From NCBI RefSeq assembly GCF_009931435.1, contig NZ_CP043415.1: a stretch of DNA of 64,000 bases; one strand, given 5' to 3'. This DNA is from Escherichia coli. GTDB taxonomy: Bacteria; Pseudomonadota; Gammaproteobacteria; Enterobacterales; Enterobacteriaceae. A program made the translations under genes and the position numbers. The notes below the pieces were generated by a model. The model was not told the DNA's origin. It did no database searches and saw nothing but the letters and a program-made list of their open reading frames with translations. This document shows positions 30,858 to 50,476 of the stretch, one piece after another (position 1 is the stretch's first letter; each line of letters starts with the position of its first letter).

Positions 30858-31599
30858 TTTACTCTCCGTCACTGATTACTTTTCGTGATTGCATGAATTC
30901 CATGCCGGGATGAATAATGGCTCACGTATCACGCAAAAAATAAACCGTTGAGTTGTGATCAATTCAACAAAATAAGATGAGGTGACTTAATACACATATG
31001 GCTATGTGTTACTAAAAACGCTGGTCAGCCAGCCTGACCAGACACATAAGAAACAACGTCTCATGCATTATTCAGCCTCCTGATACCTGGAGTAACGGAG
31101 GCTGCTTTTTCTGTCACATATTTCCCGTGAAGGCGTTACCGGTTTCCGTGGGTAACATGTGACGGAGATTATATTTTTAATCTCCGTGTATTCATCATAC
31201 CTGCTCTTGCTGACAGGATAACTGTGTTATATCGCAGGCTACCGGATGTGGCGCTGAATATAACGGTCATAGATAAGTCATACATGCCCTGCTCAGGGGA
31301 TTAGCGATAAGACGGACCGGGAGAGTCATCTCCCGGTTTTTCTTTATCCTGCCGCGAATACAGCCCGGCTGTCTGTCAGATTCACCGGATAACCCTACTG
31401 TTATGCATGCCACTGTCACCTCCTGCTTCTTGAAATTCATCACATTTTTTATCCCTGCTGGCTTACCCGGGATGTGAAATATGTTAATTCTGTGATGTCC
31501 GTTTGAAAGACAGGGCAACTCCTTCTTACACCACTATAATAATAATAACGATCTGCCATATAAGTCTGATCCCCCGGAGCTCCGCGACGGGGGTTATTT

Positions 31600-31803
31600 T
31601 TATCGGCACTTACACCGACATGCAGATGCCCTCTTCAGAGCAAAATCCCGCCATGCTTCACAGGGTGCCAGCCGGGCCGCATTCTGCCAGACCTCTGCCG
31701 CTTCCCTGAAAAAGCCACGAATCTCCTGACGGACGGCATGACGCCCCTCGCGCTGATAGCGATAAATACTGCTGTGTTCAGATAATCCACTGGATACAGC
31801 CAT
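31600..31803 (-). CDS. hypothetical small basic protein
   Basis: 67-aa ORF with a strong SD (AGAGGAGGG) 8 nt upstream of the ATG; no recognised family. Confidence 0.3.
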   Translation of the reverse strand: MAVSSGLSEHSSIYRYQREGRHAVRQEIRGFFREAAEVWQNAARLAPCEAWRDFALKRASACRCKCR

Positions 31804-31957
31804 TTTTTATCCCTCCTCTTGACCCGACACCCGGATTATGTCAGAAACATTATGAAACATCCCTGAACGGTTGGATGTTTTTCTCCATCAAAACTCTGGA
31901 TGTCTGTTTTCCCGATTTTTTTCGCTGTTGCCCTCTGTCATACAGAGGGCGCTTTTC

Positions 31958-32515
31958 TTATTCTGCCAGGATCGCCCGCAGCTCATCCTTGATCCGGTTC
32001 TGTCTGCGCACCTTTTCCAGGCGCGCCTGCGCATACTGTTCTTCTTCCTGTGTGATATGTTCTGTCACATAGCCTTCTGTATCATAGCGGCAGGCACCGG
32101 CTTTCATGGCGCCAAGATAGCTTTCTGAACGGGTGATGGCCTTCAGTGCCCTGCGCAGTTTTTTATGAGAGAGCGGGATATTCCGCTGAGACACCTCATC
32201 CAGTAAAACTTCCCGGATACCACAGGCAAGAAGCCGGGGCGTGTTACCGTCAAACAATCCCGGCCACCAGGGTTTCAGAGTGTTCACCGCCTCATCCAGC
32301 GAGGGCAGCGTCAGATAAATGGACAGCGCCTGTCTGGCCTGTGCTTTCTTCGCCGCCAGCTCTGCTTCCCGGGCAGCCTTCTCCGCCAGTTTCTGCTTTT
32401 TCACCTTCCATTTTGGTGGCGTGGTGACATTGATGATGGTTTTCCGGCTGCGGACAGGCGTCTCTCCTTCCGTTTTCCGCTTCAGTGTCAGTACCGGTCG
32501 TTTTTGCTCTGCCAT
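31958..32515 (-). CDS. finO: fertility inhibition protein FinO (RNA chaperone)
   Basis: [50 protein letters not shown]... matches FinO; 185 aa. Confidence 0.92.
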
Positions 32516-32617
32516 GCTTACTCTGACCTTCGTGAAAATATGCCCTGCAGGCCGTTGAAACAACTCATCGTAACAGGAAGTTAATTTCAACGACCTTTAA
32601 CGTATAAATACTGACAA

Positions 32618-33478
32618 TTAAAGATATTGTTTAAACCATTGTGTCTGCACAGCTACTACACGTTCAAAAAACGCGCCCTCATAAATATCATAATGGCATG
32701 CATCAGCTTCCTCGTATAATTCCTTAGTACCAGAAGCAACAGCATCATATAATGCTCTTCCCTGTTCCGGTGGATTAACGCTATCCTGGCCGGCAATAAC
32801 AACCAAAACTGGGCACTGTACTTTGGCTGCGCTCTCTGCCGGTTTATATTGCAACGTTTCCATGACCGTAAGGAAAGGTATTTTTATATCCATTTCGGGA
32901 TGCCGGGCTTTGATTTTCTCGAAGAATACCTTCGATTCATCATCACTTAGTACCCGTGTAACCCCCACAAACATCTCTTTCCCGGTGTTTTTCTTCTTCT
33001 CTGCCATTTTATTCAGCGTGGATAGAAAAGACGCTCTCTCCGATTCATTCATCTCTCCGGTAACCAGAACCTCACCGTCAGCAAAAGCCAGCTGGCTGAC
33101 AATACATTTTACGCGTTGGTCCTGCGCAGCTGCACTGAAGACATGCCCCCCTCCCAGCGATGTTCCCCATAACCCAATACGCTGATTATCAATACATTCC
33201 TGCTTTTCTGCCCAATTGATAACTGAAATAATATCTTCGGTCTGCATTGCAGGAACCAGACGACCTCGTTCTCCATCACTCTCACCGAATCCTCGATAAT
33301 CAAAAGTAATCGTTGCGAATCCTGCTTCTGTGAAGGCATTCGCAAAGCAAGGGAGCAGAACATTCCTGATACCGCAAAACCCATGGCATAAGATAATCAA
33401 AGGATGTTTTATATTTCCTTCAGGAACACGAAATGTCAGGGCAATACCTTCAGAGAGTTTGTGATCCGTAATTTTCAT
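32618..33478 (-). CDS. alpha/beta-hydrolase family protein (R100 orf286-like)
   Basis: 286 aa; nucleophile elbow GTSLGG; located between traX and finO. Confidence 0.75.
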   Translation of the reverse strand: MKITDHKLSEGIALTFRVPEGNIKHPLIILCHGFCGIRNVLLPCFANAFTEAGFATITFDYRGFGESDGERGRLVPAMQTEDIISVINWAEKQECIDNQRIGLWGTSLGGGHVFSAAAQDQRVKCIVSQLAFADGEVLVTGEMNESERASFLSTLNKMAEKKKNTGKEMFVGVTRVLSDDESKVFFEKIKARHPEMDIKIPFLTVMETLQYKPAESAAKVQCPVLVVIAGQDSVNPPEQGRALYDAVASGTKELYEEADACHYDIYEGAFFERVVAVQTQWFKQYL

Positions 33479-33536
33479 AAATATCCTGTGTTATGTTGTT
33501 TATTAATAAGCAGAATCAGCGTCAGTATCATACCAG

Positions 33537-34283
33537 TCACAACGCCAGAATGCCCAGCACAGCCAGATGACAGCCATAGAACGTCGGGAAAAAATCTCCG
33601 GGCCAGAAACGGGGTAATGATTTTCCTACACGCGACACCAGACCAACGGTCAGCACCGTCATCACAAGACCAGCTACAGCCGCCGCATCACTGGAGGCAA
33701 GGTTAAGTGCCGGAATCACGGCCAGCAGGCATGCAACCAGCACCAGACGTTCCGTTCTGTCTTCCGCCCGGTACAGCCGGTGACTGACTGCCAGCATCAG
33801 CAGCCCGGCAATGCCGTAACTGGTGCCGGACAAAGGCCCCCACAGTGCCATCAGGAGAATGGCCGCTGCAGTACGCCACCCACTGCGCGTTTCACACCAT
33901 GTCAGCACCTGTGCCGCCACTGCAAAGGCAAACAGGATATTCCCCTCATACCAGGGAAAGCCGGCCAGATAATATGCGAACTGGGCAATCATCGCCCATC
34001 CCCACAGCCGGTTAATGGCCGGTTGCCGGATATGCGCATGACGGGACAGATTCAGCCCCCACACCAGGGCAAACAGCGGAAAGGCCCCACGCCCAACCAG
34101 AAACATCCACGACTGGTCCAGATGCCGAATGCGGTTTGCATGGTCCAGAACCATCAGCACCAGTGCCACCGTTTTGATGATATCCCGCTGTCCGGGTGAC
34201 CAGACCAGCAACGACTGCAACCAGGTATCGGTCCGGGCAGCCAGTGAATCATTACGTGTTGTGTTCGTGTTATCCGTTGTCAT
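33537..34283 (-). CDS. traX: F-pilin N-acetyltransferase TraX
   Basis: 248-aa polytopic membrane protein; position after traI. Confidence 0.88.
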   Translation of the reverse strand: MTTDNTNTTRNDSLAARTDTWLQSLLVWSPGQRDIIKTVALVLMVLDHANRIRHLDQSWMFLVGRGAFPLFALVWGLNLSRHAHIRQPAINRLWGWAMIAQFAYYLAGFPWYEGNILFAFAVAAQVLTWCETRSGWRTAAAILLMALWGPLSGTSYGIAGLLMLAVSHRLYRAEDRTERLVLVACLLAVIPALNLASSDAAAVAGLVMTVLTVGLVSRVGKSLPRFWPGDFFPTFYGCHLAVLGILAL

Positions 34284-34302
34284 CAGCGTTTATCTTCCTG
34301 TG

Positions 34303-37300
34303 TCAGTCTCCGCCCAGGGTTTTCTCTTTCTGCAGGTCACGAACCATATCCCGCTCCATCTGCTGCAGTCGCTCCTGCAGCAGATTTTCCCGGGCAACCT
34401 CCCGGACCGCTTCCCGCACCCGTTGTGGTTCACGCAGTACACTCTCCGGCAGCGCGGCTTCCCGTTCAGATATGGCAGACCGGTCACGCTCCAGCCCGGC
34501 AATATCCCTGACAGCCTGCTCTGTTTTGCCGTCCGGCAGGTCAGGTTTGTTCTCTGCCATTTTACGGACAATTTCATCCGCACGGCGTTCCGTTTCACGG
34601 CGGATGGCCTCTTCAGCCTGCCGCTGTGCCAGTACCTCTGCCGTGACCGGTTCGCCATTTCCGGCTCCCGGCTGAACGCTGTTGTCCGGGATATCCCCCC
34701 ACACGCGACCACCGGTGATGGTACCGGGATTCCACGGACGACCTTCACCGGCGATTCTTACCACCACACCGCTGTCAGGATTATCACGGGCAATCCGGAC
34801 ACCATCCTGCATATTATCAGCCAGCAGGCTCTCTCCGTTACGGCTGCCCTGCAGGGCCACGAACTGCGCATCCCCGCTGCCTTTCACCCGGCCTTCACCA
34901 CTGAAGCCCCGCAGCCCGTTTCCGTCATCCGTGGTCAGCGGATTCAGCCAGATACCGGCGGACTTGCCGTTACGGTCAAAAGCCGGCAGTGCCACATACG
35001 GTTGCGGATATTTACGTCCCGGAGCAATAAACCGTGCAGGACTGTCTCCCCCGGCCAGCCCCGCCTGACGGAGAACGGCACGGCCTGCCGCCACGTCCCG
35101 CAGCTCCCGCGCCGTACTGAACAACCGCTCTGCATTCATGACCTCCCGGTCCGGTTTCGGCTCAAACACATCGTGGGCAGTTCCTTTCTGTACGGCATTG
35201 TTGATGGCATCCGTCCAGCCCTGACGGTTATCGGTGTACACCTGCACATGCTGCTTCATACGCGACAGGGCCACATAGGCTGACTCAAAGCCGGCCATCT
35301 GTTTCCGGTTACCTTCCGTGCCTTCAAGCGCAATGGCAAAGGTTTCACTTGCCCCCTGCGCACCGTGAGCGGTGATGGCATAGGCCAGGTCAATATGTTG
35401 CTCTGCCTGCTCCTGGCCGGGGCGAATCTCCCGGGTCTGCAGTCCGTCCGACAGCGTGACACTGTCACCGGAAACCGCTGTCACCGTCCAGACGCTGTTG
35501 GCCACATAACCGCGCTCCCGGTCACTCTTCGTGAAGCGCATCCGGTCACCGGTTCCCACCCGGATGGTGTCCGGAGTGTATAGTGTGACGCCTTCAGCCA
35601 CCGCCTCCCGGGGCGAAATCAGCCGCGTGTTACCTTCCGCATCCTCCAGGGTTATCAGCCCGTCATCCTTACTGATACCGGCAATCCGGTGATACACATT
35701 ATCCACCAGGGCAAGTGCGTCCCGATGTGTCTCCCAGGTGGAGAGACGACGCAACTCCCCGTCGCGTATATTCGCTGTGTTCAGGACAGGCACCATGACC
35801 TGCTCTTTTCCCAGCTCACCGGCCTTTTCCAGTGCATCATGAATCATGCTGTTCAGCACGCGCCGGTCCTCATTCAGGTGCGTAACAATCAGCGTCTGCT
35901 CCCGTGCTTCCGGTGTCCTGCCGGTATAGTCGCGGACAATGGCTTCATACAGTGTCATGGGGACATCCGGAAAAGCCTCGCCTTTCAGCATCGCTTTCTG
36001 CTGCGCTTCTGCCAGTTTCGCTTCCTGGCTGTGACTGAACTCCGTCACGGAGTGCTCCGGTGCCCATGCGCCCTCCAGACGTGGCACCTGAGACGGTTTC
36101 ACACTCTCAAGCCCGGACAGTGCCCTTTCCACATCCCGGTTAATCAGGCTGTATACCGCCTCCCGCAGTTCCGGCGTCTGACGCACAATCTCCTTCATGA
36201 TGGCCACATCGGCAGCACTGCGCGTCTGCTGGAGACGGAAAGGCTGACCGGGCGCGATGGCCTGCAGCTGGTCCGTGTCACCGCTGGCCACGGCACGACC
36301 ACCACCGGCCGCAATCAGGGCGTATGCCCGTGCCATGTCGGTATTGCCCACCATTGAGCTCTCATCGAGCAGGAACAGCGTGTTGCTGAAATCCGGCGTT
36401 TCTCCGCTGCGCTGCTGCAGCTGCGTGTCATGCAGAAAGGACGCCAGTGTCTGTGCATCCACGCCTGCGCTGCGCATCTCCCCGACCGCACGGTGCGTGG
36501 GCCCCAGCCCAACGACACGGGGACGCTCACTCTCCGGCAGCATGTTCACGGCTGACATCACCGCCCGGAACTGTGTGGTCTTACCCACCCCGGCATACCC
36601 CTGCACCACCGTGAAACGGTCGGACGTTTCCAGTATCATGCGGGTGGCGGCACGCTGTCCTGATGTCAGTTTCTCCATGAGTTCGCCAGGTACTCTCTCC
36701 ATCAGCGGCGTGACCGCCTCCTTACCCTCGAGAATATGGCGAAGAATGCTCTTTTCTGCCTCATACGACGCACGGGAAACCAGCAGGTCTGTGCCATAGC
36801 CTTTAGCCACATCCACATGCAGTAAATCACCCCGTTTTATCTGCGCATCGATTTCCCGCCCCAGTTCAGTAAAACTGGTTCCTTCTGCAGCAAACGACTT
36901 TGCCTCTGTCAGCAGGTCCACATGGCTGAAGGCCAGGTTTTTACTTTCCACCACCGGAAGGGCCAGATGAATGGCCTGCTGTGCCGGCGTGTGAAGTGCG
37001 GACTTCTGATGACTGATAGCCGTTTCCAGCGATGTCTCACCGGCACGCGCCTTTATCTGCTCAGAAACCACCGTAAAGGAGGGATGGCGGGCAAGTTTTT
37101 CCGCAGTACGGGTTTCATCCAGTGAGGAATACAGCCGGACATCACGACCGCTGCGGGCCAGACCGTTCAGGGTGGCGTTGTCCATTGCCATCTGTGTGAC
37201 GGAGGCAAAAACCTTCGCACTGTCGCTGACGGAATGCCCGGGCGTTTCCACCCAGCCGTTCTCCAGCTTCAGTGCCGTGAACGGTGAATCAGCCACAGGC

Positions 37301-39573
37301 AGGGTGGCCGGTTCAGCCCGCCCCGGCACAACAACCGTCATCGCATCTTCACTGACGGATGCCACCTGCAGGCGGTCACCGCCGGAGACGCGGAGTCCGG
37401 GAATTTTCCCTGTCACCCTCAGTCGCTCGCCGTCTGCCACCGGCATTTTTTCCGGCCGGAACAGCGACCAGCTGCTGTCCAGGGAGGAAATACGCACCAC
37501 CTGCGTTTCACCCTGCGCATCCCGCAGGGTCAGGCTGTGACTCTGCGCCGTCACCCGGTCGATAACATAGCGGTCATGACTGCGTGTCTCCGGGTTCCAC
37601 TGCTCCATCACCATCCCCGGACGGTACATATCCCGCAGATAACGGCTCCGGCTGTCCAGCCAGACCGGTGACAGGGCGGTCATGGTTACCTCCGGGTGTC
37701 CGAGCACGCCCTGTGTTTTCAGCTCACTGCGAATGGCCTGTGTCAGTATGGCCTGTTCCCGTACCCCGCTGACCTGTGCCACGCTCTCTTCTCCGGCTTT
37801 CACGCTGACCGCAAAATCTCCTGCCAGCCGGGCATAGCGGACATTACGGTCCGGTTCACTGATGATGGTGGCCGGTCGCTGTTCTCCCCCCTGCCAGCGA
37901 TATGTGTTCACCCCGGCATCCTTCATGGCCATCAGTGCACTGCCTGTACCGGTTCGCTGCCCGCTGTCGGTTATCAGGACCTGTACGTTATGACGTGCAG
38001 CACCGTCCAGCAGGGTTAACGTCTCTTTCAGGGAGAGTTTTTCGCCCTGGTCAACGATAACAGTACTGCCCGGCGTGAAGGCCATGCCTTCCAGCAGCTG
38101 ACGACGTCCGGTTATCAGCTCACCGGACAACCGTTCATCCTGCTTCAGGTTCATCTGCGAGCGACGGTCAGCAGCGATAATCTGCACCTCCCGCCCCTGC
38201 TCCCGGGCCATCATGACCAGTTCAGCCACCCGCTCACGCTGCCCGGCTGCACCGCCCTGCCCGGACACAATGGCCAGCGACGGACGGTCCTGTGCCAGAA
38301 CACTGACCGCATCGCTGTAACCAGCCGTCCGGGGGACACTTTTCTCCGGATGTACGGTCACCCGGTTCTGTTTCATGATGTCACGACTGAGTGCCCGGAC
38401 TGACAGCTCATCGAGCACATGAATCCCGGACGTGAACAGCCCCTTCTCACGATCGAGGGGGATAAGCTGCTCACGGCTGATGGCCTCATCGATACCGGCG
38501 CGTGCCCGTTCAATCACACCATTTTCCGGCGGCAGTATGCCGACCGTTCTGGCCAGCACGTCCGTGTACGTAAACTGCACTTTTCGTTCACTTAATCCGG
38601 CAATGGCCTGTGTCACCGCCTGCTGCACATCCGGCCCCTCCTGTGAAACAGCCCCGGGCGCCTGCGTGCGGGTCTCCGCACGCTGATCCGCCGCGTCACG
38701 ATATGCCCGGATGTCGAACCCGGTTTCCTTCAGCGTCTGCATCCATTCAGCCATTCTGACTTCAGGATCGACGTGCTGTTTGGATTTTCGCGTATCCAGT
38801 GCCGCCACATCCCGGGATTTCAGCGAGGCATCTTCCCCGACGGCCTCCCGGATTGCCTGTGAGCGTCCGGAAAAGGCCTCCACCGGTACGCCCGGCATTT
38901 CCCACATACCGTGCTTACCCACCACTTCGGTTTCATAGCCCAGCGCCTCAACCTGCTCTTTCAGTTTTTCCCGGTAGAGCCTGCCAAAGGCAATCTGATT
39001 AGCGTACACATTCTCAATGAACCCCGTTTTCCCCACTTTGTCACTGCTCAGTGTCTTCCATTCGCCGTTATGCTGCGTGACATTAGCCACCACCGCATGC
39101 GTGTGTAACTGTGGTTCCTGATCGCGACTGGTGTCGTGGTTAAACAGTGCCATCACCAGATTACCGGTCAGCACCGTTTCTGACTGTCCGTCCGTCATCA
39201 CCCGTGTGGAGGCCAGCGCCTCCACCTGACGAACAGCAAAGTCCACGGCCTGGTTATGTGCATCAATCAGGCGCTTATCGCCACCTAACATGGCCATCAT
39301 GGAGACACTTTTGGGGGCGGAGAAGGTCAGGTCGTAGCCGGGACGATGCCTGTTACTGCCATCCTGCATGCGGCTTAGATCCGCTCCGTCCGGCAGCCTT
39401 CCCTCCAGAAGACGGGTAAAAACATCCTTATCGACACTGCCCTGCAGTCCCAGCTGTTCAGCCCCCCTGCCGGCCCAGCGTTCTCCCATGCTGCCCAGCA
39501 CATAGTAATTATCCTTGTCGGTATAATAGTTCCCGGCACTGCCGGCCGATCTGACCTGCGCGATACTCATCAT
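34303..39573 (-). CDS. traI: relaxase/helicase TraI
   Basis: 1756 aa; [27 protein letters not shown] relaxase N-terminus; helicase Walker A QGYAGVGKTT. Confidence 0.95.
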   Translation of the reverse strand: MMSIAQVRSAGSAGNYYTDKDNYYVLGSMGERWAGRGAEQLGLQGSVDKDVFTRLLEGRLPDGADLSRMQDGSNRHRPGYDLTFSAPKSVSMMAMLGGDKRLIDAHNQAVDFAVRQVEALASTRVMTDGQSETVLTGNLVMALFNHDTSRDQEPQLHTHAVVANVTQHNGEWKTLSSDKVGKTGFIENVYANQIAFGRLYREKLKEQVEALGYETEVVGKHGMWEMPGVPVEAFSGRSQAIREAVGEDASLKSRDVAALDTRKSKQHVDPEVRMAEWMQTLKETGFDIRAYRDAADQRAETRTQAPGAVSQEGPDVQQAVTQAIAGLSERKVQFTYTDVLARTVGILPPENGVIERARAGIDEAISREQLIPLDREKGLFTSGIHVLDELSVRALSRDIMKQNRVTVHPEKSVPRTAGYSDAVSVLAQDRPSLAIVSGQGGAAGQRERVAELVMMAREQGREVQIIAADRRSQMNLKQDERLSGELITGRRQLLEGMAFTPGSTVIVDQGEKLSLKETLTLLDGAARHNVQVLITDSGQRTGTGSALMAMKDAGVNTYRWQGGEQRPATIISEPDRNVRYARLAGDFAVSVKAGEESVAQVSGVREQAILTQAIRSELKTQGVLGHPEVTMTALSPVWLDSRSRYLRDMYRPGMVMEQWNPETRSHDRYVIDRVTAQSHSLTLRDAQGETQVVRISSLDSSWSLFRPEKMPVADGERLRVTGKIPGLRVSGGDRLQVASVSEDAMTVVVPGRAEPATLPVADSPFTALKLENGWVETPGHSVSDSAKVFASVTQMAMDNATLNGLARSGRDVRLYSSLDETRTAEKLARHPSFTVVSEQIKARAGETSLETAISHQKSALHTPAQQAIHLALPVVESKNLAFSHVDLLTEAKSFAAEGTSFTELGREIDAQIKRGDLLHVDVAKGYGTDLLVSRASYEAEKSILRHILEGKEAVTPLMERVPGELMEKLTSGQRAATRMILETSDRFTVVQGYAGVGKTTQFRAVMSAVNMLPESERPRVVGLGPTHRAVGEMRSAGVDAQTLASFLHDTQLQQRSGETPDFSNTLFLLDESSMVGNTDMARAYALIAAGGGRAVASGDTDQLQAIAPGQPFRLQQTRSAADVAIMKEIVRQTPELREAVYSLINRDVERALSGLESVKPSQVPRLEGAWAPEHSVTEFSHSQEAKLAEAQQKAMLKGEAFPDVPMTLYEAIVRDYTGRTPEAREQTLIVTHLNEDRRVLNSMIHDALEKAGELGKEQVMVPVLNTANIRDGELRRLSTWETHRDALALVDNVYHRIAGISKDDGLITLEDAEGNTRLISPREAVAEGVTLYTPDTIRVGTGDRMRFTKSDRERGYVANSVWTVTAVSGDSVTLSDGLQTREIRPGQEQAEQHIDLAYAITAHGAQGASETFAIALEGTEGNRKQMAGFESAYVALSRMKQHVQVYTDNRQGWTDAINNAVQKGTAHDVFEPKPDREVMNAERLFSTARELRDVAAGRAVLRQAGLAGGDSPARFIAPGRKYPQPYVALPAFDRNGKSAGIWLNPLTTDDGNGLRGFSGEGRVKGSGDAQFVALQGSRNGESLLADNMQDGVRIARDNPDSGVVVRIAGEGRPWNPGTITGGRVWGDIPDNSVQPGAGNGEPVTAEVLAQRQAEEAIRRETERRADEIVRKMAENKPDLPDGKTEQAVRDIAGLERDRSAISEREAALPESVLREPQRVREAVREVARENLLQERLQQMERDMVRDLQKEKTLGGD

Positions 39574-41771
39574 CAGAAATCATCTCCCGGCTCAACATCC
39601 TCCCCGCGCTCCCGGTGCACATTAATGTTCACCTCTTCACGACGCTGCATCTGCTGCTGGATGTCCGGATGATTTTCCTGTTGCCATGCCTCATAAGCGG
39701 CCATATCCACCACTTCACCGGATTCACTGATCCCGGGTGGCAGTTGCTGTTCCATCTCTTCTTCCGGTTTCATTTTCAGCTCCTGCTCGATCCCCCCTGC
39801 CGGAACATTCACACCTGAATCTGACTTCTTATCGTTGATGGCAGGAGACATCGGCTGTTGCGGCTGTTGCGGCTGTTGCGGCTGTTGCGGCTGTTGCGGC
39901 TGTTGCGGCTGTTCAGCCTGAGTCACGTCTTCTCCGGAAACAACTTCCGGCACATCCGGTTCGAAGAGGCTGGCCATCTGACGACCTTCTGCTTCCCTTG
40001 CGGCAAGTACGGCGCTCAGGCGGTTCTCCATTTCCGGGTTGATGTCACGCGGAATAAACTCAGGGGCAACCTTCGGACGTGCCTGATATTTCAGTGAGAG
40101 TTTTACTGCCGGATACGGTCCGGGCAGGGTGACATAACAGGTCAAATCCGGCAGAGACTGAATGTCGGAATAACTGACCAGCGTCTGGCGCTCCATATCC
40201 TTACCGGTCGATACCCCGTCACGTACCGGATCAGCACCGTAGGAGTACTGCTCGCTGGCTTTCAGGTGCTCTTTCTCACCAATCTCACCGGCAGCGAACT
40301 CTGCAATCTTATGGCTGGGAGAACGGAAAAAGGCACGGGTGTTCATGACGTCAAACAGCGTGGCAGCCGCTTTCTCACCGTAGATATCTTCCAGCTGGGC
40401 ATAGGACTGGATACCAAACACATAACAGCCACCGAACTTACGGGCTTCCGGCAGGATCTCCACCAGGTCCGGCAGTTTGTGTAACGTGGGTAGCTCATCA
40501 CAGAAAAACCACACACGACGGTTACGGTTTTCTCCCATTGCCAGCAGACCACGAATGGCAATGGACAGCCACATGGAGATCACCGGCTTCAGGGAGGCAT
40601 GGGTGTCGGCATTCGACGAGATAAACAGCCAGCCGTTTTTCTGATCTTCCCGGACACCCCGCATCCAGTCACGGATGGTAAAAGACTCACCGTTATGCTC
40701 AATCCCCTGCAGGTAACGGATGGCTTTCACGTAGTTGGTCAGCACAGCACGGATGGAAATCGCCGTTTTCTCAATTTTCTCTTCCACCAGGTTGGCCGCC
40801 GGTGAATTACGCAGGAAGGTACGCAGTTTTTCGATTTTGATGGAAAGCAGTGTGTCCACCAGTTTGCTGTAGCTACGGTTGGGGTCATTACGCATCAGGT
40901 ACGCCGCTTCCGCAAAAATGGTACGTCCTGAACCCTGCCAGAACGGGTCCTCTTTTGTGCCCATCGGGATCAGGGTATTTGCCGTATTATCAAAATCCGG
41001 CTGTGTCAGACACTCCTTCCATAAATCCCAGGCGGCACAGCGGGCATCCAGCGGATTCAGGATTTTATCGATGGAGGGATCATAGTAACTTTTAACAAAT
41101 TCCCCCGAACGGTCATAAATCACCACCATATCACCGCGCTGACGGGCGTAGTTGGCCAGACGACGGATAACTTCCGACTTACCGGCCCCGACCGTGCCGT
41201 GCAGACAGAAGTTCTGGATTTCGGAATCCCGGATAATCGGCAGGTCTCCAATCCGGATATCGGAGTCCTTGCCGTCTTTTTTCAGCATCCGGGCAACGTC
41301 TTTCGGATTGTCTGTCAGCTGACGACCACCTGTGGCTTCATTTTCGCTCTGTTGTTTACCCTGACGCCCCAGAATCCAGGAGACAACAAAGAAGGTAATC
41401 AGGCAAATAACCAGTGCCACAACAGCAGCCAGCACGAAGGCGGACCATAACTGCTCACTGCACCAGATCATATATTTGTCATGCAGTACCTGAGCAGCGT
41501 TCATGCGGAAGGTTTTACCGTAATACTGGATCTCATAGACCGGCTGGGATTTGATTAAATCCCGCATGCCTTCCAGCGTGGTACACCACCAGTAAATACA
41601 GCCGTTCACAAACGTCTGCCAGCTTATTTTTATCCATAAAACCAGACCAACGAGTATCCAGAAAAAAATAAACAGGCAGTAAAGCATGATATTGGCGATC
41701 TGGCTGAACATGCGGATACGCATGGACGCAATCTGACCGCCCTGGGTCATATCCTTTGCGTTAAAACTCAT
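39573..41771 (-). CDS. traD: type IV coupling protein TraD
   Basis: 732 aa; Walker [10 protein letters not shown]-terminal (QQP)n tract; stop overlaps the traI start by 1 nt. Confidence 0.95.
39851..39915 (-). repeat. tandem 9-bp coding repeat in traD encoding (QQP)n
   Basis: CGGCTGTTG repeated ~6.5 times on the plus strand (CAGCAGCCG on the coding strand). Confidence 0.9.
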
Positions 41772-41989
41772 GATGATATTCCGAAGAAAAAAAGTCAGTC
41801 GGACTGATTATTAATGATGAAAAGATTAATAACCGTTAAATTCCGGCTTCGCCGGCAACACTTCACGGTCGCACAAAGAATTTGCACAACCGCTCAGTGT
41901 TTTCATATTTATTTCGGAAACGCCGGGGAGAAATAAAATTTATTTTATTTCTTTCCGGGGTTGGACAACGAGCAAAGCGAGGCGTCAGT

Positions 41990-42012
41990 CAGGAGGCCGG
42001 TCAGACCAGCCT
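41990..42012 (-). terminator. hairpin after traT (candidate terminator)
   Basis: GGAGGCcggtcagaccaGCCTCC directly 3' of the traT stop, followed by a second hairpin. Confidence 0.4.
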
Positions 42013-42023
42013 CCGGAAGATAA

Positions 42024-42758
42024 TCAGAGAATATTTGCGATTGATTTGGCCAGCTGGTCTTCGAGAACAGGCTTCGCCTCTTCAAATTTCAGGTTAACCT
42101 TGTTCGCATTTGAGACCACACGGGTCTGGTATTTATGCTGGTTACCTGTTTCTGTACTGGTCTGAATTTTCGCACCTGATGTGCCCTGACGCAGGGCGGC
42201 AACATTATCCGTTGTCACCGTTGCCTTAGTACGCTCTGCAATCTGCACATCCGTGATCATGGTATAGTTCACATCTTCCACCATCGCATCTGCAGCCATA
42301 CCCACCAGACCGGCAGCAAGGCCCACACCGAGTGTGGCACCGGCAGAATTGGAATTATATCCGGTGATACCGGCACCTAACGCTGCACCAACTGCTGCGC
42401 CTTCATAACCACGGTTCAGCCATCCCTGAGACTCCCGCAGATCCATCTTATCGGCCTTCAGCACATTCGCCTGAATCCAGTAGTAGGCTTTATCCGGAGA
42501 AGTCACCACCTGATACCCTTTTGCTTTCACAGCATCAGCAATTTTGCCCTGCAGCCCACTCATGTCTTTATCAGACGTGTTTTTGATCTGCAGAAATACC
42601 GTGCGTTCGCTGGCGGGTTCAAGCCAGATGGTCTCACTCATCTGAGTCTTCACCTCAAGGTTACGCTTCTTGATTGCTGTGCTCATCGCACCACACCCTG
42701 AAAGGGCCAGAGTGGAACTGACCAGTGCAACCATCATTAGTTTTTTTGTTTTCATCAT
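42024..42758 (-). CDS. traT: surface exclusion / serum-resistance lipoprotein TraT
   Basis: Lipobox LALSGCGA; near-identical to F TraT. Confidence 0.93.
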
Positions 42759-42779
42759 ATATTTACTCTCTAATATCTT

Positions 42780-43301
42780 TTATTTTACTCTTGATAACTT
42801 CTTGTTTTTGACGTAACTATTGATTGCATCAATAACACCAACAAATTGATATCTACCGATATCTAATTGAATCAAGAACGCCATAATAACCGTCACTAAA
42901 ATTGCGCCAAAACCGTATATAATCCCTCCACCTAAAAAAGACCATAAAAATATAACCCCCATATACACAATGAAATACACTTTAAGTTTTGATGATATAA
43001 CCCTCATTACGGATGATGTCTTTAGGAATTCTTCCGGCAGAGAGAAATATAACATTCTAATCCTTGCCACAATAAACAGAATAATAAGTCCAAGCCATCC
43101 TCCGGCTAACACAGCAGTGAGTGTTTCACTTGTCTTTTGTGTTATTAGAAATGACATTAGCAAGGGACAAAAAATCATCCACCCCATGATGATAAGCCCG
43201 GGTTTTAATCCCTGCCATAGTGACGGAATTCTAATATCTCCTGAGTCAATATGTTTCTTTAAAACTTCCAACTCACTACTGATAATTTGTTGTGTAATCA
43301 T
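42780..43301 (-). CDS. traS: entry exclusion inner-membrane protein TraS
   Basis: 173-aa hydrophobic, AT-rich ORF between traG and traT. Confidence 0.8.
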   Translation of the reverse strand: MITQQIISSELEVLKKHIDSGDIRIPSLWQGLKPGLIIMGWMIFCPLLMSFLITQKTSETLTAVLAGGWLGLIILFIVARIRMLYFSLPEEFLKTSSVMRVISSKLKVYFIVYMGVIFLWSFLGGGIIYGFGAILVTVIMAFLIQLDIGRYQFVGVIDAINSYVKNKKLSRVK

Positions 43302-43333
43302 GGTCTCTCCATACCCTACCCAACATGTTATGA

Positions 43334-46150
43334 TTATTTTTTATGCTGGTAACTCTTTGCTTTCTCTAAAAGCTCTTTCGGACTATCAGCACCAGGTATT
43401 CTTTCCTGAGCCAGCTTTTCTTCATTATATTTATTATTCTGAGTTAATGCTTCTGTTTTATGATGATTTTGTAGTTCAGAATACTGCCCTTTTACAATAT
43501 TTTCCTCGCCTCGGATGCTGTTCTGAGTATCTCCGATATTACCTCGATATTCTGTGACCATATTATCAACCTGATGTTTTACATCATTACGGATATTACT
43601 GTCCTGCGTTCTTTGCTCAATAATGGCCTGATGTCCCTGATGATCAGCAATAATATCCTGGCTGCCACCACCCGAAGGTACGCTCTCCATTCCTTTACCT
43701 ATATCTCTACGGGATTCACGCCAGGTGTTATCAACACCAGGCTGTACCTGTTCCTGCACAAAAGACCACGCCATAGCCCGACGGCGTTCTGCAATCTCCG
43801 GCGAACTGGTATTTGTCAGAATAGCTTCAACATCCTGCGGTGCGTTTTTCATCACATACTGTGCAAACTGTTGCGACAGATCTTCACTCATCTGCCCACT
43901 CATACTCTCAGTACGGGATGCCATTTCAGCATATTCATGGCTGCGGGTCATATTCGTCGTGTACTGGTCGTAACTCTGTTTCGCTGAATTCAGGGCTGCA
44001 GACAACTGATCCACACGGGAATCAGCATTATTGTCAGTATGGCTGCCGGATTCACTGACTTTGCGGCTGGTAAAGTAATCGCTGGCTTCTTTAAAGTCTT
44101 GTGTAGCTCTGGCATCGATATCATGACGAGCATCATGGCTGGCCCGTGAACCACTACTGGCTTCATGTGAGTCAAGATCACTGCCATCAATGCTTGCCTT
44201 AGCTCCGGCCTGGAGACCAACCCCTCCACCGTTACCCAATACACTTATGCCTAAATGCCCTTTAGCATAAGCATCACCGTAAAGGCCAAGCGACGCATTT
44301 GTACTTCTCGAGGCCAGTTCTCTCGTCGCCTGCTCATTACTGATATTATGCGCCTTCGCATAGCTTTCCACTGCACTGCGCATACGGCTGGCCATCATGG
44401 AGTCCTGAGCACTCATCGTGCTGTCAGCACCACCAGTGACAGAGTCACTGCTCCCCCGGTTAGAGCCAAACTGACTGAGTGTGTTCCAGGCACTGGCAAT
44501 ACTGCTGCTGAAACCATGCAGGGCACTTTCGGCTCTGTTCGACGCCTCCCGGGCCATTTCCTGTTGTGCCGCTGCAATCTGACGCGTTGCATTGATACCG
44601 ACCGGTAACCGGGACATCGCTCCGCTTGCATCCATCACCATATTACCGTCACGGGTCTGTGTGGCGGTTGCGCCACTGCCGGTCTGGTACATCATCTGAC
44701 CAAACGACGTGGTGCTGTTGGTGCTCCAGCTGAAGCCGTTCACGTTTTCCGTCTGCATGTTGCCGTAGGAGTAATTACCGTCAACCACACTGCCTGCTGC
44801 ACTGGCCGTTGGACTGATAGATGAAGAGGCGAAGTGGCTGTACACGCTGGAAAAACCTGCGCCAAGGCCTTTTACCATCATCCATGACAACGGGGGGATC
44901 ATGGCTGAAAGATACCCGGCAGTGGAGGCCAGGTCAGAGTATTTCAGCTGTATCTGAGAGAGTTCAGACAACACGACCGGCGCACCATTCTGTTTCGCAT
45001 AGAATGTCATGGCACTGTTCAGAATGGCATACAACAACGGCCAGGTCTGCAGCCACATCAGGGCAAACACATACCCCTTTAATACAGACAATGTCAGCTT
45101 GTTAAAGACAGCCGCCAGTATCAGGAGCGGGAATATACCAATGGCAATCCCCGTCAGGATAGTCTGGACCATCGGCAGGTTTCGCATAGTTACATGACCA
45201 ATGGAGACATGTGCCAGACGTTGTTTCTCCATCGATGACGTGGTGGCCAGACTTACCAGGCTGGCGGTGTCACCGTTACGGGCTGCATTACTGGTGATAC
45301 CCTCTTTCAGGGCATTCATGGTGACGTTCTGGCGCATAATCTGGCTGGCAGACTGACTGGAGCCGTAGAAATAACTGTAACTGTCACTGACCAGTTGTCT
45401 GAATAACAGGTCCGGGTCCGGTCTGCCGCCAAATATCTGCTGCACATAATAATGCCAGGTCTTGCCTCCCGTCTTTGTATCGAGATTCAGCCTGTCTTTC
45501 AGCGTGACCGACGCATCCTTACAAGTTATGAAATTATTATTGTTGTCATAAACGCCCCGTAGCGGGCTGGGGCGGGAAAAAATCAGCGTGTAGGGGTCAG
45601 CGGAGGCCATCAGGTCTTCCAGCGTGTATTTATGATTCAGGTAAATATCACCCAGCACGCAGTTCTGGACGTAGTCCTGGAACAGATTGATGATTTCCGG
45701 ATTCCGGGACAGGAAATCGGTGCTTTTCACAATCAGATTCGCCCCGAACAGCATCCCCGTTTTGCTGTAGGTGACGCTGTCCGGTTGCGTGAAGATCATC
45801 TCGTAACTGGCCACCATTGCATGCCCGATACGGGTCGTCAGTGAAAGTGGCATCGCCAGACCGACCGGCACATTATCCACCCGGTGAACTTTGACCAGGT
45901 CACTGTTATCAATAATCTGCACCGATGTGCGGACATTAACCAGCAGGCTGATAAGCACAAACACGGCCACCCAGCCCAGCAAATCCATCACGTTGTGCCG
46001 CTGTACCCACATTACGGCCACCGCGAGAACAGACAATGTGAGCGCAATTTTTTCAATGGAATCCCACGTCCAGGTTCCCATAAAGGCGGCAATGGCGTTC
46101 AGGTTATTCCGCAACCACTCACCACCGGCAATCACATAAACTTCATTCAC
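43334..46150 (-). CDS. traG: mating-pair stabilisation protein TraG
   Basis: 938 aa, N-terminal membrane domain; F order. Confidence 0.92.
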   Translation of the reverse strand: MNEVYVIAGGEWLRNNLNAIAAFMGTWTWDSIEKIALTLSVLAVAVMWVQRHNVMDLLGWVAVFVLISLLVNVRTSVQIIDNSDLVKVHRVDNVPVGLAMPLSLTTRIGHAMVASYEMIFTQPDSVTYSKTGMLFGANLIVKSTDFLSRNPEIINLFQDYVQNCVLGDIYLNHKYTLEDLMASADPYTLIFSRPSPLRGVYDNNNNFITCKDASVTLKDRLNLDTKTGGKTWHYYVQQIFGGRPDPDLLFRQLVSDSYSYFYGSSQSASQIMRQNVTMNALKEGITSNAARNGDTASLVSLATTSSMEKQRLAHVSIGHVTMRNLPMVQTILTGIAIGIFPLLILAAVFNKLTLSVLKGYVFALMWLQTWPLLYAILNSAMTFYAKQNGAPVVLSELSQIQLKYSDLASTAGYLSAMIPPLSWMMVKGLGAGFSSVYSHFASSSISPTASAAGSVVDGNYSYGNMQTENVNGFSWSTNSTTSFGQMMYQTGSGATATQTRDGNMVMDASGAMSRLPVGINATRQIAAAQQEMAREASNRAESALHGFSSSIASAWNTLSQFGSNRGSSDSVTGGADSTMSAQDSMMASRMRSAVESYAKAHNISNEQATRELASRSTNASLGLYGDAYAKGHLGISVLGNGGGVGLQAGAKASIDGSDLDSHEASSGSRASHDARHDIDARATQDFKEASDYFTSRKVSESGSHTDNNADSRVDQLSAALNSAKQSYDQYTTNMTRSHEYAEMASRTESMSGQMSEDLSQQFAQYVMKNAPQDVEAILTNTSSPEIAERRRAMAWSFVQEQVQPGVDNTWRESRRDIGKGMESVPSGGGSQDIIADHQGHQAIIEQRTQDSNIRNDVKHQVDNMVTEYRGNIGDTQNSIRGEENIVKGQYSELQNHHKTEALTQNNKYNEEKLAQERIPGADSPKELLEKAKSYQHKK

Positions 46151-47520
46151 AGCGTGCTCCCTCCGAAGTGATAGTTGTTCTGGTAACGACTGAGCATGCG
46201 GGCGGAAAGCTGCTGACGCATGTAGCTCATCTGACGATCGACAACCAGCAGCGCATCCTGCTGTACCTGCACCTGTGACTGAAACGCCGCAATCTGCCGG
46301 GTGGCATCATTCATGTTGTCGTTAATATGCCCGATAACCGCTTCGTCATAATTTCCCGTGGCCACCATCGCCCGGGCCTGCTGTATCAGCTCCTGAATGT
46401 ACTGCAGCAGGATGTCGTAACCGATATAGTCCGTCAGCTGGTAAATCATACTGTTGGAAACACCGAGCATCTGCGGGTCAACCAGGTATTTGAAGACGGG
46501 GATGGTGGTACTGGAAATAAAGCCTTTTTCCTTGTCATCCAGAGGCGTGTCACTGACAGCCTTGTTCTGAATGCTGGCCAGAAGTTTAGTAATCTGAGAC
46601 TTCAGTGCATTATCCCGGCTGATGGTCACCGGTGTGTCTGCCACCACTTTCAGGCATTTATCAGAATCGTTGCAGTGATAAATTTTTGCTGTGCCGCCTT
46701 CCATCATGGCCCGGATAATTGAGCGGTCAGTGGTTCTGGCTGACAGCGGTGTGATTTCGCCGTTGGGACCAAACACCAGTGAGCCGGTCAGCGTCATCAC
46801 AAACTCTTTCAGCTCTTTGTTGCCGTCAAACATTCTGTTTTTGGAAAGCGCATTCCACATGATGTTAATGTTTTTGGTCACCCGCTCCTTATCCTTGTCG
46901 CTGGCTTTATCCCTGACGCTGTCAGATTTACCGCCAACGGTACATCCCTGCCGGGAAGCCGCCCAGTCAGCAAAAATATTGCTCTCACCGGCAATGTCCT
47001 GACAGACTTTTTGCTGGGACACCTGCGTCCGGGGGAAAAGCCCGCCGATAATCCCCTGCGCCGCCTGGCAGGAACTGAGGTTCATGCTGTTAATGTCGCT
47101 TGCCATTTTCTGCAGGAAGTCTTTTGCGGTTTTGATTTCCGGCACCGTTGTCTGCAGGGCAAGGTCAAAAAAGTAACCGGCAGCATTACTCATAATCTGC
47201 TTAACAAAACGCTGCAGCTGCTCACCATTAATAAAACTGAACGAACCGAGATAAGCGTCGATGCCGCCACATCCGGCATTGATATCCGGCAGCGTCATGG
47301 AAATCAGCTGAACATTTTTGACCTGAGTACGGGCATACAGGGAGCCGCCGTAAGCATAGCCGGCAGCCTGCCCCTGCCAGACGCCCGGCTGTGTGGTATT
47401 GGAGGCGAAGCCCAGCTTGTTAAAGAACTGATTCATGTCGCTGTTCACATCCGCTGACGCTGCAGGCGTCACCGTCAGTAAGGCGGCACAAAGAATAAAA
47501 AGAGGCTTAATGCGAAGCAT
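46147..47520 (-). CDS. traH: F-pilus assembly protein TraH
   Basis: 457 aa with signal peptide; F order. Confidence 0.92.
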   Translation of the reverse strand: MLRIKPLFILCAALLTVTPAASADVNSDMNQFFNKLGFASNTTQPGVWQGQAAGYAYGGSLYARTQVKNVQLISMTLPDINAGCGGIDAYLGSFSFINGEQLQRFVKQIMSNAAGYFFDLALQTTVPEIKTAKDFLQKMASDINSMNLSSCQAAQGIIGGLFPRTQVSQQKVCQDIAGESNIFADWAASRQGCTVGGKSDSVRDKASDKDKERVTKNINIMWNALSKNRMFDGNKELKEFVMTLTGSLVFGPNGEITPLSARTTDRSIIRAMMEGGTAKIYHCNDSDKCLKVVADTPVTISRDNALKSQITKLLASIQNKAVSDTPLDDKEKGFISSTTIPVFKYLVDPQMLGVSNSMIYQLTDYIGYDILLQYIQELIQQARAMVATGNYDEAVIGHINDNMNDATRQIAAFQSQVQVQQDALLVVDRQMSYMRQQLSARMLSRYQNNYHFGGSTL

Positions 47521-47932
47521 TATTGCTGCCCTCCCTTAATGTGTTCTCCCGGCGCATACGGCGTTTCAACAGGAATATCCCGATATTTCCGTATATTAAT
47601 TCGTACATTGGGAACAGAAAAAATGTAACAAGAAACCCGACTGCAAGCGCATATAACGCATACGGAATGACATATATCAGGATATTCCACATATAAATCG
47701 AATTATTTAATTCTTGGTCCATTTTCCACGAATCAATACAGGCATCAAAAATAATATTCATAGCTGTCCATAAAACAATTCCGGCAGTCAGAAATACCAG
47801 AGGCAATCCAGCATACCTGTCAGTAATTCTGGAAATGTATTTATAATCTCGTTCTGTACTTCTGATTTTGAGTTCAGGATTATTTTTATTTTCTCTCATT
47901 ATAAGTTCCCTCTGATATTTCCGATAATTCAT
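47507..47932 (-). CDS. trbF: TrbF (start codon uncertain)
   Basis: Small membrane protein between trbJ and traH; ORF is 141 aa versus ~126 aa in F. Confidence 0.7.
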   Translation of the reverse strand: MNYRKYQRELIMRENKNNPELKIRSTERDYKYISRITDRYAGLPLVFLTAGIVLWTAMNIIFDACIDSWKMDQELNNSIYMWNILIYVIPYALYALAVGFLVTFFLFPMYELIYGNIGIFLLKRRMRRENTLREGSNNASH

Positions 47933-48167
47933 TCAGACCAGTCCTGCGGCTGTAATATATTTCAGACACCGAAATCCATCCCACAATTGCCCCCACAAAA
48001 AACACAACAGAAACAGAAAAGGTAAGGCACAGCGAAACGACAATTTCTACAGGGCTGGCGGGATAAAAAAGCCCCTGATGGATAAAGGGGATATTCAGGC
48101 TGACGATTATTCCCGTCGCGATGCCGGATATTCCGGCAATGAGTAACACCACCTGCTTATTTCGCAC
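47886..48167 (-). CDS. trbJ: TrbJ, GTG start
   Basis: 93 aa from GTG at 48165-48167 with a GGAGGG RBS; the ATG-initiated ORF (to 48260) would overlap trbB by 100 nt. Confidence 0.7.
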   Translation of the reverse strand: MRNKQVVLLIAGISGIATGIIVSLNIPFIHQGLFYPASPVEIVVSLCLTFSVSVVFFVGAIVGWISVSEIYYSRRTGLNELSEISEGTYNERK

Positions 48168-48702
48168 CTTTTTTCCCTCCGTACATCTGCAGAACGGTAT
48201 CCATCCGCGCCATAAAACCGGCGGCATCCGTTGCCCCCTGTAAAAGCGGTAATGCCTCAAGCGTGTTGACGTTGACCAGGAAGGTGGTCGGTGTGGCCAC
48301 CGGAATATTCGGGAAGAAGGTCTGCATCACGTCCGGTGGCACCGGTAATGCTTCCGGAAAGGCGGTATCCCCCTGACCATCCAGGGTGTAGGGAAAAACG
48401 GAAAAGCCGTACTGCTGTGCCAGCTGCTTCAGTACCGGGTCAAACTGGTGACAGTAAGGGCAATGCCCCTGCATAAACAGCACCACCTTCCAGTCGGCCA
48501 GGTTAACCTGCCTGCCATTACTGAGGCGGAACCAGCGGGGAGCCGGCTTTGCTGTCCTGGCTGACGTGCCTGCTGCCGGTTGTGCAGGCTGCGTAGCCAT
48601 ACCCTGCGGATTCCAGAGTCGCTCTATTTCATCCCGGGTGGAGGCCTGCACAGCAGCGGCGCTCAGCAACAGGGTGAACAGCAGTGATTTAGTGAGAGAC
48701 AT
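48157..48702 (-). CDS. trbB: periplasmic thiol-disulfide isomerase TrbB
   Basis: 181 aa; signal peptide; thioredoxin-like CPYC motif. Confidence 0.9.
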   Translation of the reverse strand: MSLTKSLLFTLLLSAAAVQASTRDEIERLWNPQGMATQPAQPAAGTSARTAKPAPRWFRLSNGRQVNLADWKVVLFMQGHCPYCHQFDPVLKQLAQQYGFSVFPYTLDGQGDTAFPEALPVPPDVMQTFFPNIPVATPTTFLVNVNTLEALPLLQGATDAAGFMARMDTVLQMYGGKKGAK

Positions 48703-48973
48703 GTCCGCCCTCCTGCTGCCCTTCCATCATGGCCTGTTGCCTGGCTTCCAGTGCCTCACGCTCTTCCCGGCTGACACGGGCAATCCATGCATCCAGCACC
48801 TGGTATGCGCCGAACAGTACGAGAATGGCCGCAATCAGCTCCGCCAGAAAAAAAGCCATCCAGGGTTTGCTGTAAACAAGACGGGCGACGATATGAAACC
48901 AGACACCCAGGGAAAATACCCACATTCCCGTAATATCAAGCCGGGGTAAAGAGAATCTGCGTTTACTTATCAT
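48689..48973 (-). CDS. traQ: pilin chaperone TraQ
   Basis: 94-aa membrane protein, F order. Confidence 0.88.
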   Translation of the reverse strand: MISKRRFSLPRLDITGMWVFSLGVWFHIVARLVYSKPWMAFFLAELIAAILVLFGAYQVLDAWIARVSREEREALEARQQAMMEGQQEGGHVSH

Positions 48974-49053
48974 GTTAAACTCCGGTTATTATTTACATGA
49001 GAGTATTCATGTCTGTAATATTCGCGTTTGTGTGATATTAATCAGAGGTACAA

Positions 49054-49368
49054 ATGGAAAAGCGATCTTTTAAAGAAAAACTGGAAATAATCAGAAACAT
49101 AATAAGAGAGTCGTTACTGGGAAATGCGGCAATTATTGCGCTGATATATGCAGCATCACATTCATTACCGGTCAATGCCTTCCCTGACTATCTTGTAATA
49201 AGTTTATTAAGTATCGCAGCAGTCATCGTTGTATTATGGTTATTTTCAATTATCTATATTTATTTTTGTGAGCTATTCAGAAGCCACTGGATTGCGGTAT
49301 GGTTTATCATATGGTCTTCAGTAATCAACCTCATTATTTTGTATGGTTTTTATGACCATTTTATATGA
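49054..49368 (+). CDS. artA: ArtA (anti-tra-strand gene)
   Basis: 104-aa hydrophobic ORF on the strand opposite the tra operon, between traQ and trbA as in F. Confidence 0.7.
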   Translation: MEKRSFKEKLEIIRNIIRESLLGNAAIIALIYAASHSLPVNAFPDYLVISLLSIAAVIVVLWLFSIIYIYFCELFRSHWIAVWFIIWSSVINLIILYGFYDHFI

Positions 49369-49369
49369 C

Positions 49370-49717
49370 TTAGCCTGTCATAAGCCCCCTTATAAAAAAC
49401 CACATCACTCCGGACCATACCGATGACAACACAATACAGATAAATATTCTTCTGAACCTGTCGAAGCTCGTAACGTCCGGTAATGCGGCCGCAACTATTG
49501 AAACAACCAGTGCTGCGCCCTGACTCATAATTGCACCACACAGAAACCAGAGACTGGCGGTAAGCACATATAAACACGCGATATTAATAACAAGGAAAAC
49601 CAGTGAGCTCAGGAGAAACATTTTCCTGTCATTACGCTCAGAAAAGAAATAACCGGCAATAATGACAAACATTAACAGAACAACACCTGTAAACATTTTC
49701 AAATAATCTTCACTCAT
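49370..49717 (-). CDS. trbA: TrbA
   Basis: 115-aa membrane protein, F order. Confidence 0.8.
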   Translation of the reverse strand: MSEDYLKMFTGVVLLMFVIIAGYFFSERNDRKMFLLSSLVFLVINIACLYVLTASLWFLCGAIMSQGAALVVSIVAAALPDVTSFDRFRRIFICIVLSSVWSGVMWFFIRGLMTG

Positions 49718-49732
49718 AAATCAAATCCGCGA

Positions 49733-50476
49733 TTAAAAATTGGGTTTAAAATCTTCAGAAACGTTCAGGAACTGTTTTGCCAGGTCGTCCTGCGAAATAA
49801 AGCCGTATGATAACGGGCGAACACTGCCCTGTTTCGGGTCAACCAGCATCATGGCCGGGAAATATTTCACGCCGAGGCGCTGCGCCTGCCCCTGGTCAGT
49901 CCGGGAATCCGGCAACAGCGGATTAATCACGCCATCCACGGAAACGGGAATAACACTCAGACCATACGTATCCCGGAAGCCATTAATGACCTGCGCCAGT
50001 TGCCCGTCGATGGGGTCCTGCCCCCGGTAAAAAAACATGATGCCGTAGTGTTCAGCCAGTTTCGCAATGGCCTGTCGCTGCTGCGCCTGGTCTGCTGCCA
50101 GCTGGTTCCGTACCGTGCCGTTGTAATGGCTGTACTGCAGGTTATAGTCCAGTTCAGGATGTGCCAGCATGGCCTTTCTGGCGCTCATGGTGAAAAGCCC
50201 GGCCTGCTGAGTCCAGTAATTTTGCAGCCGGAAATATTTCACAAAATTATCCACGCCGGGATACAGAATGGCTTCGTACAGCGCCCGCTTTGTTGCCGTC
50301 TGCAGTGCGGCCAGTTTCTGCATAATATCCGGTTCCTGACGGGGGGCTGCAGGTACAGGTTTATTTTCTTTTTCCTTCGGATTTATTTTCTCGTTATACC
50401 ACTGCCAGCCTGCATCTTTTCCTGACGCCGGAAAGATAAAGCAGCAGAGTAACAGTGGCAGTAATGCTTTATTCAT
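49733..50476 (-). CDS. traF: pilus assembly thioredoxin-like protein TraF
   Basis: 247 aa from MNKALLPLLLCCFIFPASG (signal peptide). Confidence 0.9.
   Translation of the reverse strand: MNKALLPLLLCCFIFPASGKDAGWQWYNEKINPKEKENKPVPAAPRQEPDIMQKLAALQTATKRALYEAILYPGVDNFVKYFRLQNYWTQQAGLFTMSARKAMLAHPELDYNLQYSHYNGTVRNQLAADQAQQRQAIAKLAEHYGIMFFYRGQDPIDGQLAQVINGFRDTYGLSVIPVSVDGVINPLLPDSRTDQGQAQRLGVKYFPAMMLVDPKQGSVRPLSYGFISQDDLAKQFLNVSEDFKPNF

Follow-up and report, generated by a model that had tools for sequence, protein, structure and literature searches.

Whole-unit copy-number variation of an in-frame 9-bp repeat in the traD gene of F-like plasmids

Among related plasmids, the C-terminal extension of TraD is heterogeneous and contains a variable QQP motif of 5 residues (QPQQP) in F and of 23 residues in R1 (Lang et al. 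2011, Mol Microbiol 82:1071, PMC3245843, Fig. 8). A whole-word literature search yielded no other paper that mentions this motif. The very end of the same extension is better characterized functionally: residues 710-717 of F TraD were swapped in the work on TraM binding, a single contact between the TraD tail and TraM is weak, and avidity matters, the TraD hexamer being proposed to bind TraM tetramers on oriT through several of its tails at once, aided by their predicted flexibility (Wong et al. 2011, PMC3159463). Type IV coupling proteins have their structural archetype in TrwB of plasmid R388 (1e9r/1gl6), whose motor domain is homologous to that of TraD.

Here we describe the QQP tract encoded in a 64,000-nucleotide stretch of Escherichia coli DNA (hereafter, the window). 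This tract is similar to the motif of Lang et al. 2011 in that it occurs in the same gene and at the same position, is composed of the same Gln-Gln-Pro unit, varies in length and is embedded in the unstructured extension upstream of the TraM interaction domain. Unlike the alleles reported in that study, it reads QP(QQP)6 and spans 20 residues, between F (5) and R1 (23). The difference in length between TraD of the window (732 aa) and F-length TraD (717 aa) is 15 residues, that is, exactly five QQP units.

The traD gene, the repeat array and its structural setting

The genes and protein regions that are relevant for the analysis of the array are the following:

39573..41771, minus strand: traD, F-type type IV coupling protein, 732 aa (ORF; coordinates include the stop codon)
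34303..39573, minus strand: traI relaxase/helicase (ORF; adjoins traD downstream)
40089..41258, minus strand: TrwB-like nucleotide-binding/DNA-binding motor domain, TraD residues 172-561 (Pfam)
39741..39998, minus strand: hypervariable spacer within the C-terminal extension (residues 592-677), predicted to be disordered, with the array inside (AlphaFold2, alignment)
39852..39913, minus strand: perfect tandem array, 62 bp, 100% periodicity, six full units, all identical
39906..39914, minus strand: degenerate seventh copy GAACAGCCG (E620-Q621-P622), one base off the unit CAACAGCCG
39576..39599, minus strand: C-terminal acidic tail DVEPGDDF, residues 725-732 (same as the tail of the F-length TraD cluster representatives)

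The ORF at 39573..41771 encodes F-type TraD, the coupling protein of the F conjugation system. The protein matches NCBIfam NF010254 over the full length (residues 1-732; 1683 bits, cut-off 1221) and TIGR02759 with 834 bits (cut-off 521), and Pfam domains TraD_N (PF12615), TrwB_AAD_bind (PF10412) and TraG-D_C were detected at residues 32-128, 172-561 and 419-541, respectively, TraD_N being the membrane domain at the N-terminus. The Walker A motif, GTVGAGKS, comprises residues 192-199, and G192, V194, G197, K198 and S199 are invariant in 52 homologues. Relatives that are approximately 100% identical over window positions 30000-50000 are annotated traT-traD-traI-traX-finO, with traD located between traT and traI. 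The ATG of traI and the stop codon of traD overlap by one base (window 39571-39575), an arrangement that is compatible with translational coupling of the two genes. The first-pass annotation had called this gene traD, with a (QQP)n tract; both the family models and the ORF translation agree with that call.

In the coding sense, the array consists of AACAGCCG followed by six copies of CAACAGCCG, which encode Q621-P622 and (QQP)6 (residues 623-640), respectively; on the plus strand, the unit reads CGGCTGTTG. The tract thus corresponds to residues 621-640 of 732, in the context ...VTQAEQP(QQP)6MSPAINDKK.... Tandem Repeats Finder (TRF), applied to the 64-kb window, reported period 9, 6.9 copies, 100% matches and 0 indels, with a score of 124, compared with 58 for the runner-up. 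The longest run of period-9 self-matches is 53, at the array; elsewhere in the window such runs are at most 8, and the maxima in shuffled sequences were 11 (200 mononucleotide shuffles) and 12 (200 triplet shuffles). The analytic expectation for the run at the array is approximately 8e-28 (a chance of about 1e-27). The initial placement of the tract at 39851-39915 was essentially right, if slightly off at both ends, and the perfect 9-bp periodicity proposed at the outset holds, with the copy number revised from about 6.5 to the TRF value.

Base 39914 completes the degenerate copy, GAACAGCCG, which encodes EQP, as opposed to QQP for CAACAGCCG (the E620 codon is GAA). In all relatives, this copy serves as a fixed anchor at the 5' end of the array. 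Every locus counted retains the left flank, ...CAGGCTGAACAGCC[G/A], and in the directly counted loci, the third-codon base of the anchor copy agrees with the unit allele of the array.

Both strands of the array fold no better than shuffled sequences (z about 0.1), which rules out DNA secondary structure as the driver of instability, so that no hairpin mechanism is needed for slippage. A plus-strand ORF (39858..40097, 79 aa) was rejected as a gene, being the antisense reading of the repeat inside traD. No Rfam family was detected over the repeat; the Rfam matches above the gathering score in the window are the following:

36648-36724, plus strand: AS-traI
45346-45431, plus strand: AS-traG
31034-31158, plus strand: AS-pc02
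29620-29776, minus strand: sok antitoxin RNA
28725-28811, plus strand: CopA-like replication-control RNA
14453-14539, plus strand: group II intron catalytic domain

A sequence search of the PDB matched only TrwB (1e9r/1gl6), which aligned with TraD residues 161-573 (E = 3e-47); the C-terminal extension had no match among PDB sequences of at least 20 residues, the limit of the database searched. The peptide in the TraM-TraD tail complex is shorter than this limit. The TrwB alignment stops at TraD residue 573, the solved chains contain no counterpart of the approximately 160-residue C-terminal extension of TraD, and the QQP tract lies outside this sole solved homologous domain.

In the AlphaFold2 model, built with an alignment of 52 TraD homologues (59-99% identity), residues 592-677 have pLDDT below 50 and no secondary structure, and the tract itself is modelled as coil with pLDDT of 24-34. 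In the same alignment, residues 611-650 show the lowest conservation and the most gaps in TraD (column conservation 0.08-0.20, gap fraction 53-84%). Conserved blocks flank the spacer, ...LFEPD before it and GGxEQEL...LPPGIxExGEVVDMxAYEAWQ...EPGDDF after it. In TraDs of the Salmonella and Atlantibacter types (76-87% identity), short runs of QQP are found where the tract lies. The TraDs of the Klebsiella, Serratia and Pectobacterium types contain unrelated filler rich in Ala, Pro, Ser and Thr, of very different length, up to several tens of residues longer (approximately residues 606-655).

The tract is located in this disordered linker, 92 residues before the TraD C-terminus. The placement in the 'C-terminal tail' suggested by the first-pass annotation therefore applies to the C-terminal extension but not to the TraM-binding tail proper, the last approximately 8 residues. 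Judging from its sequence, the tail at residues 725-732 appears to correspond to the TraM-binding tail of F TraD, TraM binding being the role assigned in the literature. The predicted structure suggests that the QQP array is part of a flexible tether joining the motor and the TraM-binding tail.

Copy number among related plasmids

A 627-bp query spanning the array (39574-40200) had matches in 3,982 PLSDB plasmids and in 2,803 of 5,426 complete E. coli genomes, the RefSeq E. coli hits numbering 3,213. Among the full-length BLAST matches listed, 175 of 176 have spans whose difference from 627 bp is an exact multiple of 9, with values between -54 and +216 bp. Direct counts in the 19 loci that were fetched gave 1, 1, 3, 5, 6, 6, 6, 7, 7, 9, 10, 10, 10, 11, 12, 13, 17, 18, 27 and 31 units, the array occupying one site with conserved flanks in every case. 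The variation in repeat number among F-like plasmids that had been anticipated from the window alone is thus real, and the comparison of related plasmids that was proposed along with it yielded anything but an invariant count. One of the loci (L005, plasmid pAVS0970-A) shows a higher-order duplication, with two arrays, including a (QQP)12, and a repeated 11-residue block between them.

Two alleles of the unit were identified, CAACAGCCG (CCG) and CAACAGCCA (CCA), and each fits the third-position base of the anchor and the flanking haplotype. Counting by BLAST span is exact only for the CCG haplotype and gives one unit too few for the CCA haplotype, because of an extra 9-bp deletion upstream (LFEPEVA), as confirmed by direct counts at three loci (L008, L011 and L012). 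The CCA haplotype of E. coli TraD lacks three residues (DVP) just upstream of the array. For the F plasmid itself (99,158-bp record, H175), the span is 582 bp, or 1 unit, in agreement with the QPQQP reported for F (Lang et al. 2011). In a search of 5.8 billion proteins clustered at 90% identity, the length variants are collapsed, and the E. coli representatives contain 1-3 units only.

The best 60 of the 3,982 PLSDB plasmids have flanks at least 99.7% identical to the window, and in this set, there are 3 units in 3 records, 6 in 10, 9 in 26, 10 in 5, 11 in 9, 12 in 3, 13 in 2, 18 in 1 and 27 in 1. Even plasmids with 100% identical flanks differ, with 6 to 27 units. The modes of the copy-number distribution (1 unit and 9 units) may be due either to selection or to successful plasmids having spread clonally.

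Three close relatives were compared with the window over 20,001 bp (window 30000-50000): L013 differs by 1 substitution and +1 unit, L015 by 3 substitutions and +1 unit, and L014 by 2 substitutions and +4 units. Other than the array, these comparisons contain only one indel, a deletion of 1 bp in L014. L017 and L018, which belong to an independent lineage, are 2 units apart, with 1 substitution in 20.6 kb. Overall, there are at least 2 to 3 array events against approximately 5 substitutions in about 20 kb. From these few events, we infer that the array changes approximately as often as 5-20 kb of ordinary sequence gains one substitution; taken at face value, the same small numbers would put array mutation at roughly 1e4 times the average per-site rate. 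The combination of a perfect array with differences of 1-4 units at 1-3 substitutions per 20 kb is the pattern of an in-frame coding VNTR. The array is not wildly unstable, nor unstable on short time scales: 9 units are found in 26 of the 60 closest records, including six Klebsiella pneumoniae plasmids of one series, and in one strain pair, the two records have identical arrays.

Several individual differences were noted in the course of these comparisons. Position 35441 of the window, in traI, is A here and T in L013, L014 and L015, and is the sole substitution between the window and L013 in 20 kb. The 1-bp deletion in L014 (CP057960.1) lies inside traD, at the equivalent of window position 40735, and the record lists no traD CDS; L009 (CP058778.1) has a span of 662, not a multiple of 9, and likewise lists no traD CDS. 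The anomalies in L014 and L009 reflect either true pseudogenes with a frameshift or sequencing errors in homopolymers.

Slippage, recombination and other explanations

The interpretation that we favor, with a probability of about 0.85, is that the array is an in-frame 9-bp VNTR in a disordered TraD spacer, altered mainly by slippage and occasionally by recombination, with length changes that are near-neutral. Under this scheme, perfect head-to-tail copies would misalign during replication (slipped-strand mispairing) and sometimes also in homologous recombination between plasmids. Whole units would be gained or lost as a result, and the length of TraD would change by QQP triplets, with the reading frame kept. 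In a spacer free of sequence or length constraint, most length variants would be tolerated, and the copy number would drift fast.

Slippage is most likely the main mechanism. A single identical unit builds 18 of the 19 counted arrays, and the flanks of each of these arrays represent one haplotype. Pure arrays matching their own anchor and haplotype are what repeated slippage within a lineage predicts.

The near-neutrality of the length changes is suggested by a lineage in which the tra region has decayed. In L017, L018 and L019 (CP027446, CP027460 and CP027364; IncFIA/FIB plasmids of approximately 74 kb), traI carries an IS600 insertion, the records list no traD CDS, and the traD frame opens only at about residue 130, preceded by a foreign N-terminal sequence (SGAESSYGPHSF...). 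The arrays of these plasmids nevertheless consist of 11, 9 and 6 units, respectively. Variation where traD is disrupted, together with a spacer that is unconstrained across the family, favors mutation-driven, largely neutral drift in length.

Of the alternatives, the one that fares best, although we still consider it unlikely, is that unequal, RecA-dependent recombination between sister plasmids or plasmids in the same cell accounts for most changes in copy number, with slippage playing the lesser part. The clearest case in point is L016 (NZ_CP049848.1, pEcoUTI1d; array in locus 201-1043), a chimera with the longest array seen, 31 units, in which 26 CAACAGCCA (CCA) units are followed by 5 CAACAGCCG (CCG) units. 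This array is flanked on the left by sequence 100% identical to the CCA haplotype and on the right by sequence with 98.8% identity to the CCG haplotype, which places the crossover inside the array. A duplicated block with (QQP)n in L005 (NZ_CP124503.1, pAVS0970-A, locus 201-926) points in the same direction, and F-like plasmids often share a host, a single genome containing as many as 7 matching places. Against a dominant role of this process, all counted arrays other than the L016 chimera are pure and flanked by a single haplotype, steps of 1-2 units at 1 substitution per 20 kb are typical of slippage, and an array of 62 bp is a short substrate for RecA. Recombination thus contributes as well, as shown by the L016 chimera and the L005 segmental duplication.

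A rather improbable explanation is that the array is an adaptive tuning knob, or contingency locus, in which length is selected because it sets the reach or the avidity of the six TraD tails for TraM-oriT, or else susceptibility to the RNA phages of the F pilus (R17/MS2), which depend on TraD, the hypermutability itself being kept by selection. Lang et al. 2011 (PMC3245843) speculate both that TraD variation underlies plasmid-specific differences and that phage resistance diversifies the coupling proteins of F-like plasmids, and Wong et al. 2011 (PMC3159463) place emphasis on avidity and on a flexible tail. The perfect purity of arrays of up to 27-31 units and the QQP runs at the same position in the Salmonella-type and Atlantibacter-type TraDs could be taken to indicate selection as well, but slippage alone would produce such purity. 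Moreover, one unit suffices for F transfer, other TraD lineages carry unrelated filler of any length, and the array still varies where traD is disrupted; the whole-word literature search retrieved no phenotype data on array length. A related conjecture, to which we give slightly less credence still, is that variation in tether length samples transfer efficiencies, mobilization specificities or RNA-phage susceptibilities, with the array serving also as a junction at which the motor and tail halves of traD are shuffled, as in L016.

It is very improbable that the variation is an artefact of sequencing or assembly, with repeats collapsed or expanded in public records. Tandem repeats are indeed error-prone in assemblies, and the 1-bp length anomalies of traD in two records (the 662 span of L009 and the L014 deletion) imply that some records are erroneous or truly frameshifted. 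However, unlike long-read errors, 175 of the 176 listed differences are exact multiples of 9 with perfect units; a single short read can cover an array of about 100 bp or less; independent records repeat the same counts, with 6 units in 10 of the 60 closest and 9 units in 26; and F and R1, sequenced in the Sanger era, already show different lengths (Lang et al. 2011, PMC3245843). Finally, classical on/off phase variation of traD by a frameshifting repeat, which a perfect tandem repeat inside an ORF with copy number varying among close relatives might bring to mind, is ruled out, because with a 9-bp unit slippage alters only the length and keeps the frame at every whole-unit change, all 19 counted alleles are in frame downstream to ...EPGDDF, and 175 of the 176 listed spans are multiples of 9.

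Relation to known variable repeats

The variable QQP motif of F-like TraD is an already known feature, and the allele in the window is another length variant of it. The present analysis adds the range of 1-31 units, variation by whole units where the flanks are identical, a rough estimate of the relative rate, the two alleles of the unit, one chimeric array, one segmental duplication and the persistence of variation in a decayed tra region. Pipelines for annotation and plasmid typing should expect traD lengths that vary by multiples of 9 bp, and given this 9-bp step, two traD alleles that differ at this site need not be distantly related. As a fast-evolving marker, the array could help outbreak tracing by separating IncF plasmids that are very close relatives. 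Any effect of tether length on transfer would concern the main vehicle of resistance genes in Enterobacteriaceae; beyond such bookkeeping, the significance of the variation is small.

Among the described classes of repeats, the TraD array resembles the bacterial in-frame coding VNTRs used in MLVA typing, with perfect units of a length that is a multiple of 3, gain and loss of whole units, and polymorphism among near-identical genomes. Unlike those VNTRs, it resides on a conjugative plasmid and encodes a cytoplasmic linker of a secretion ATPase rather than part of a surface protein, and no typing use or phenotype is documented for it. With the contingency loci of Neisseria and Haemophilus, the array shares a hypermutable tandem repeat in a coding region; in those loci, units of 1-7 bp change the reading frame and turn the gene on or off, whereas the 9-bp unit of TraD alters only the length of the protein.
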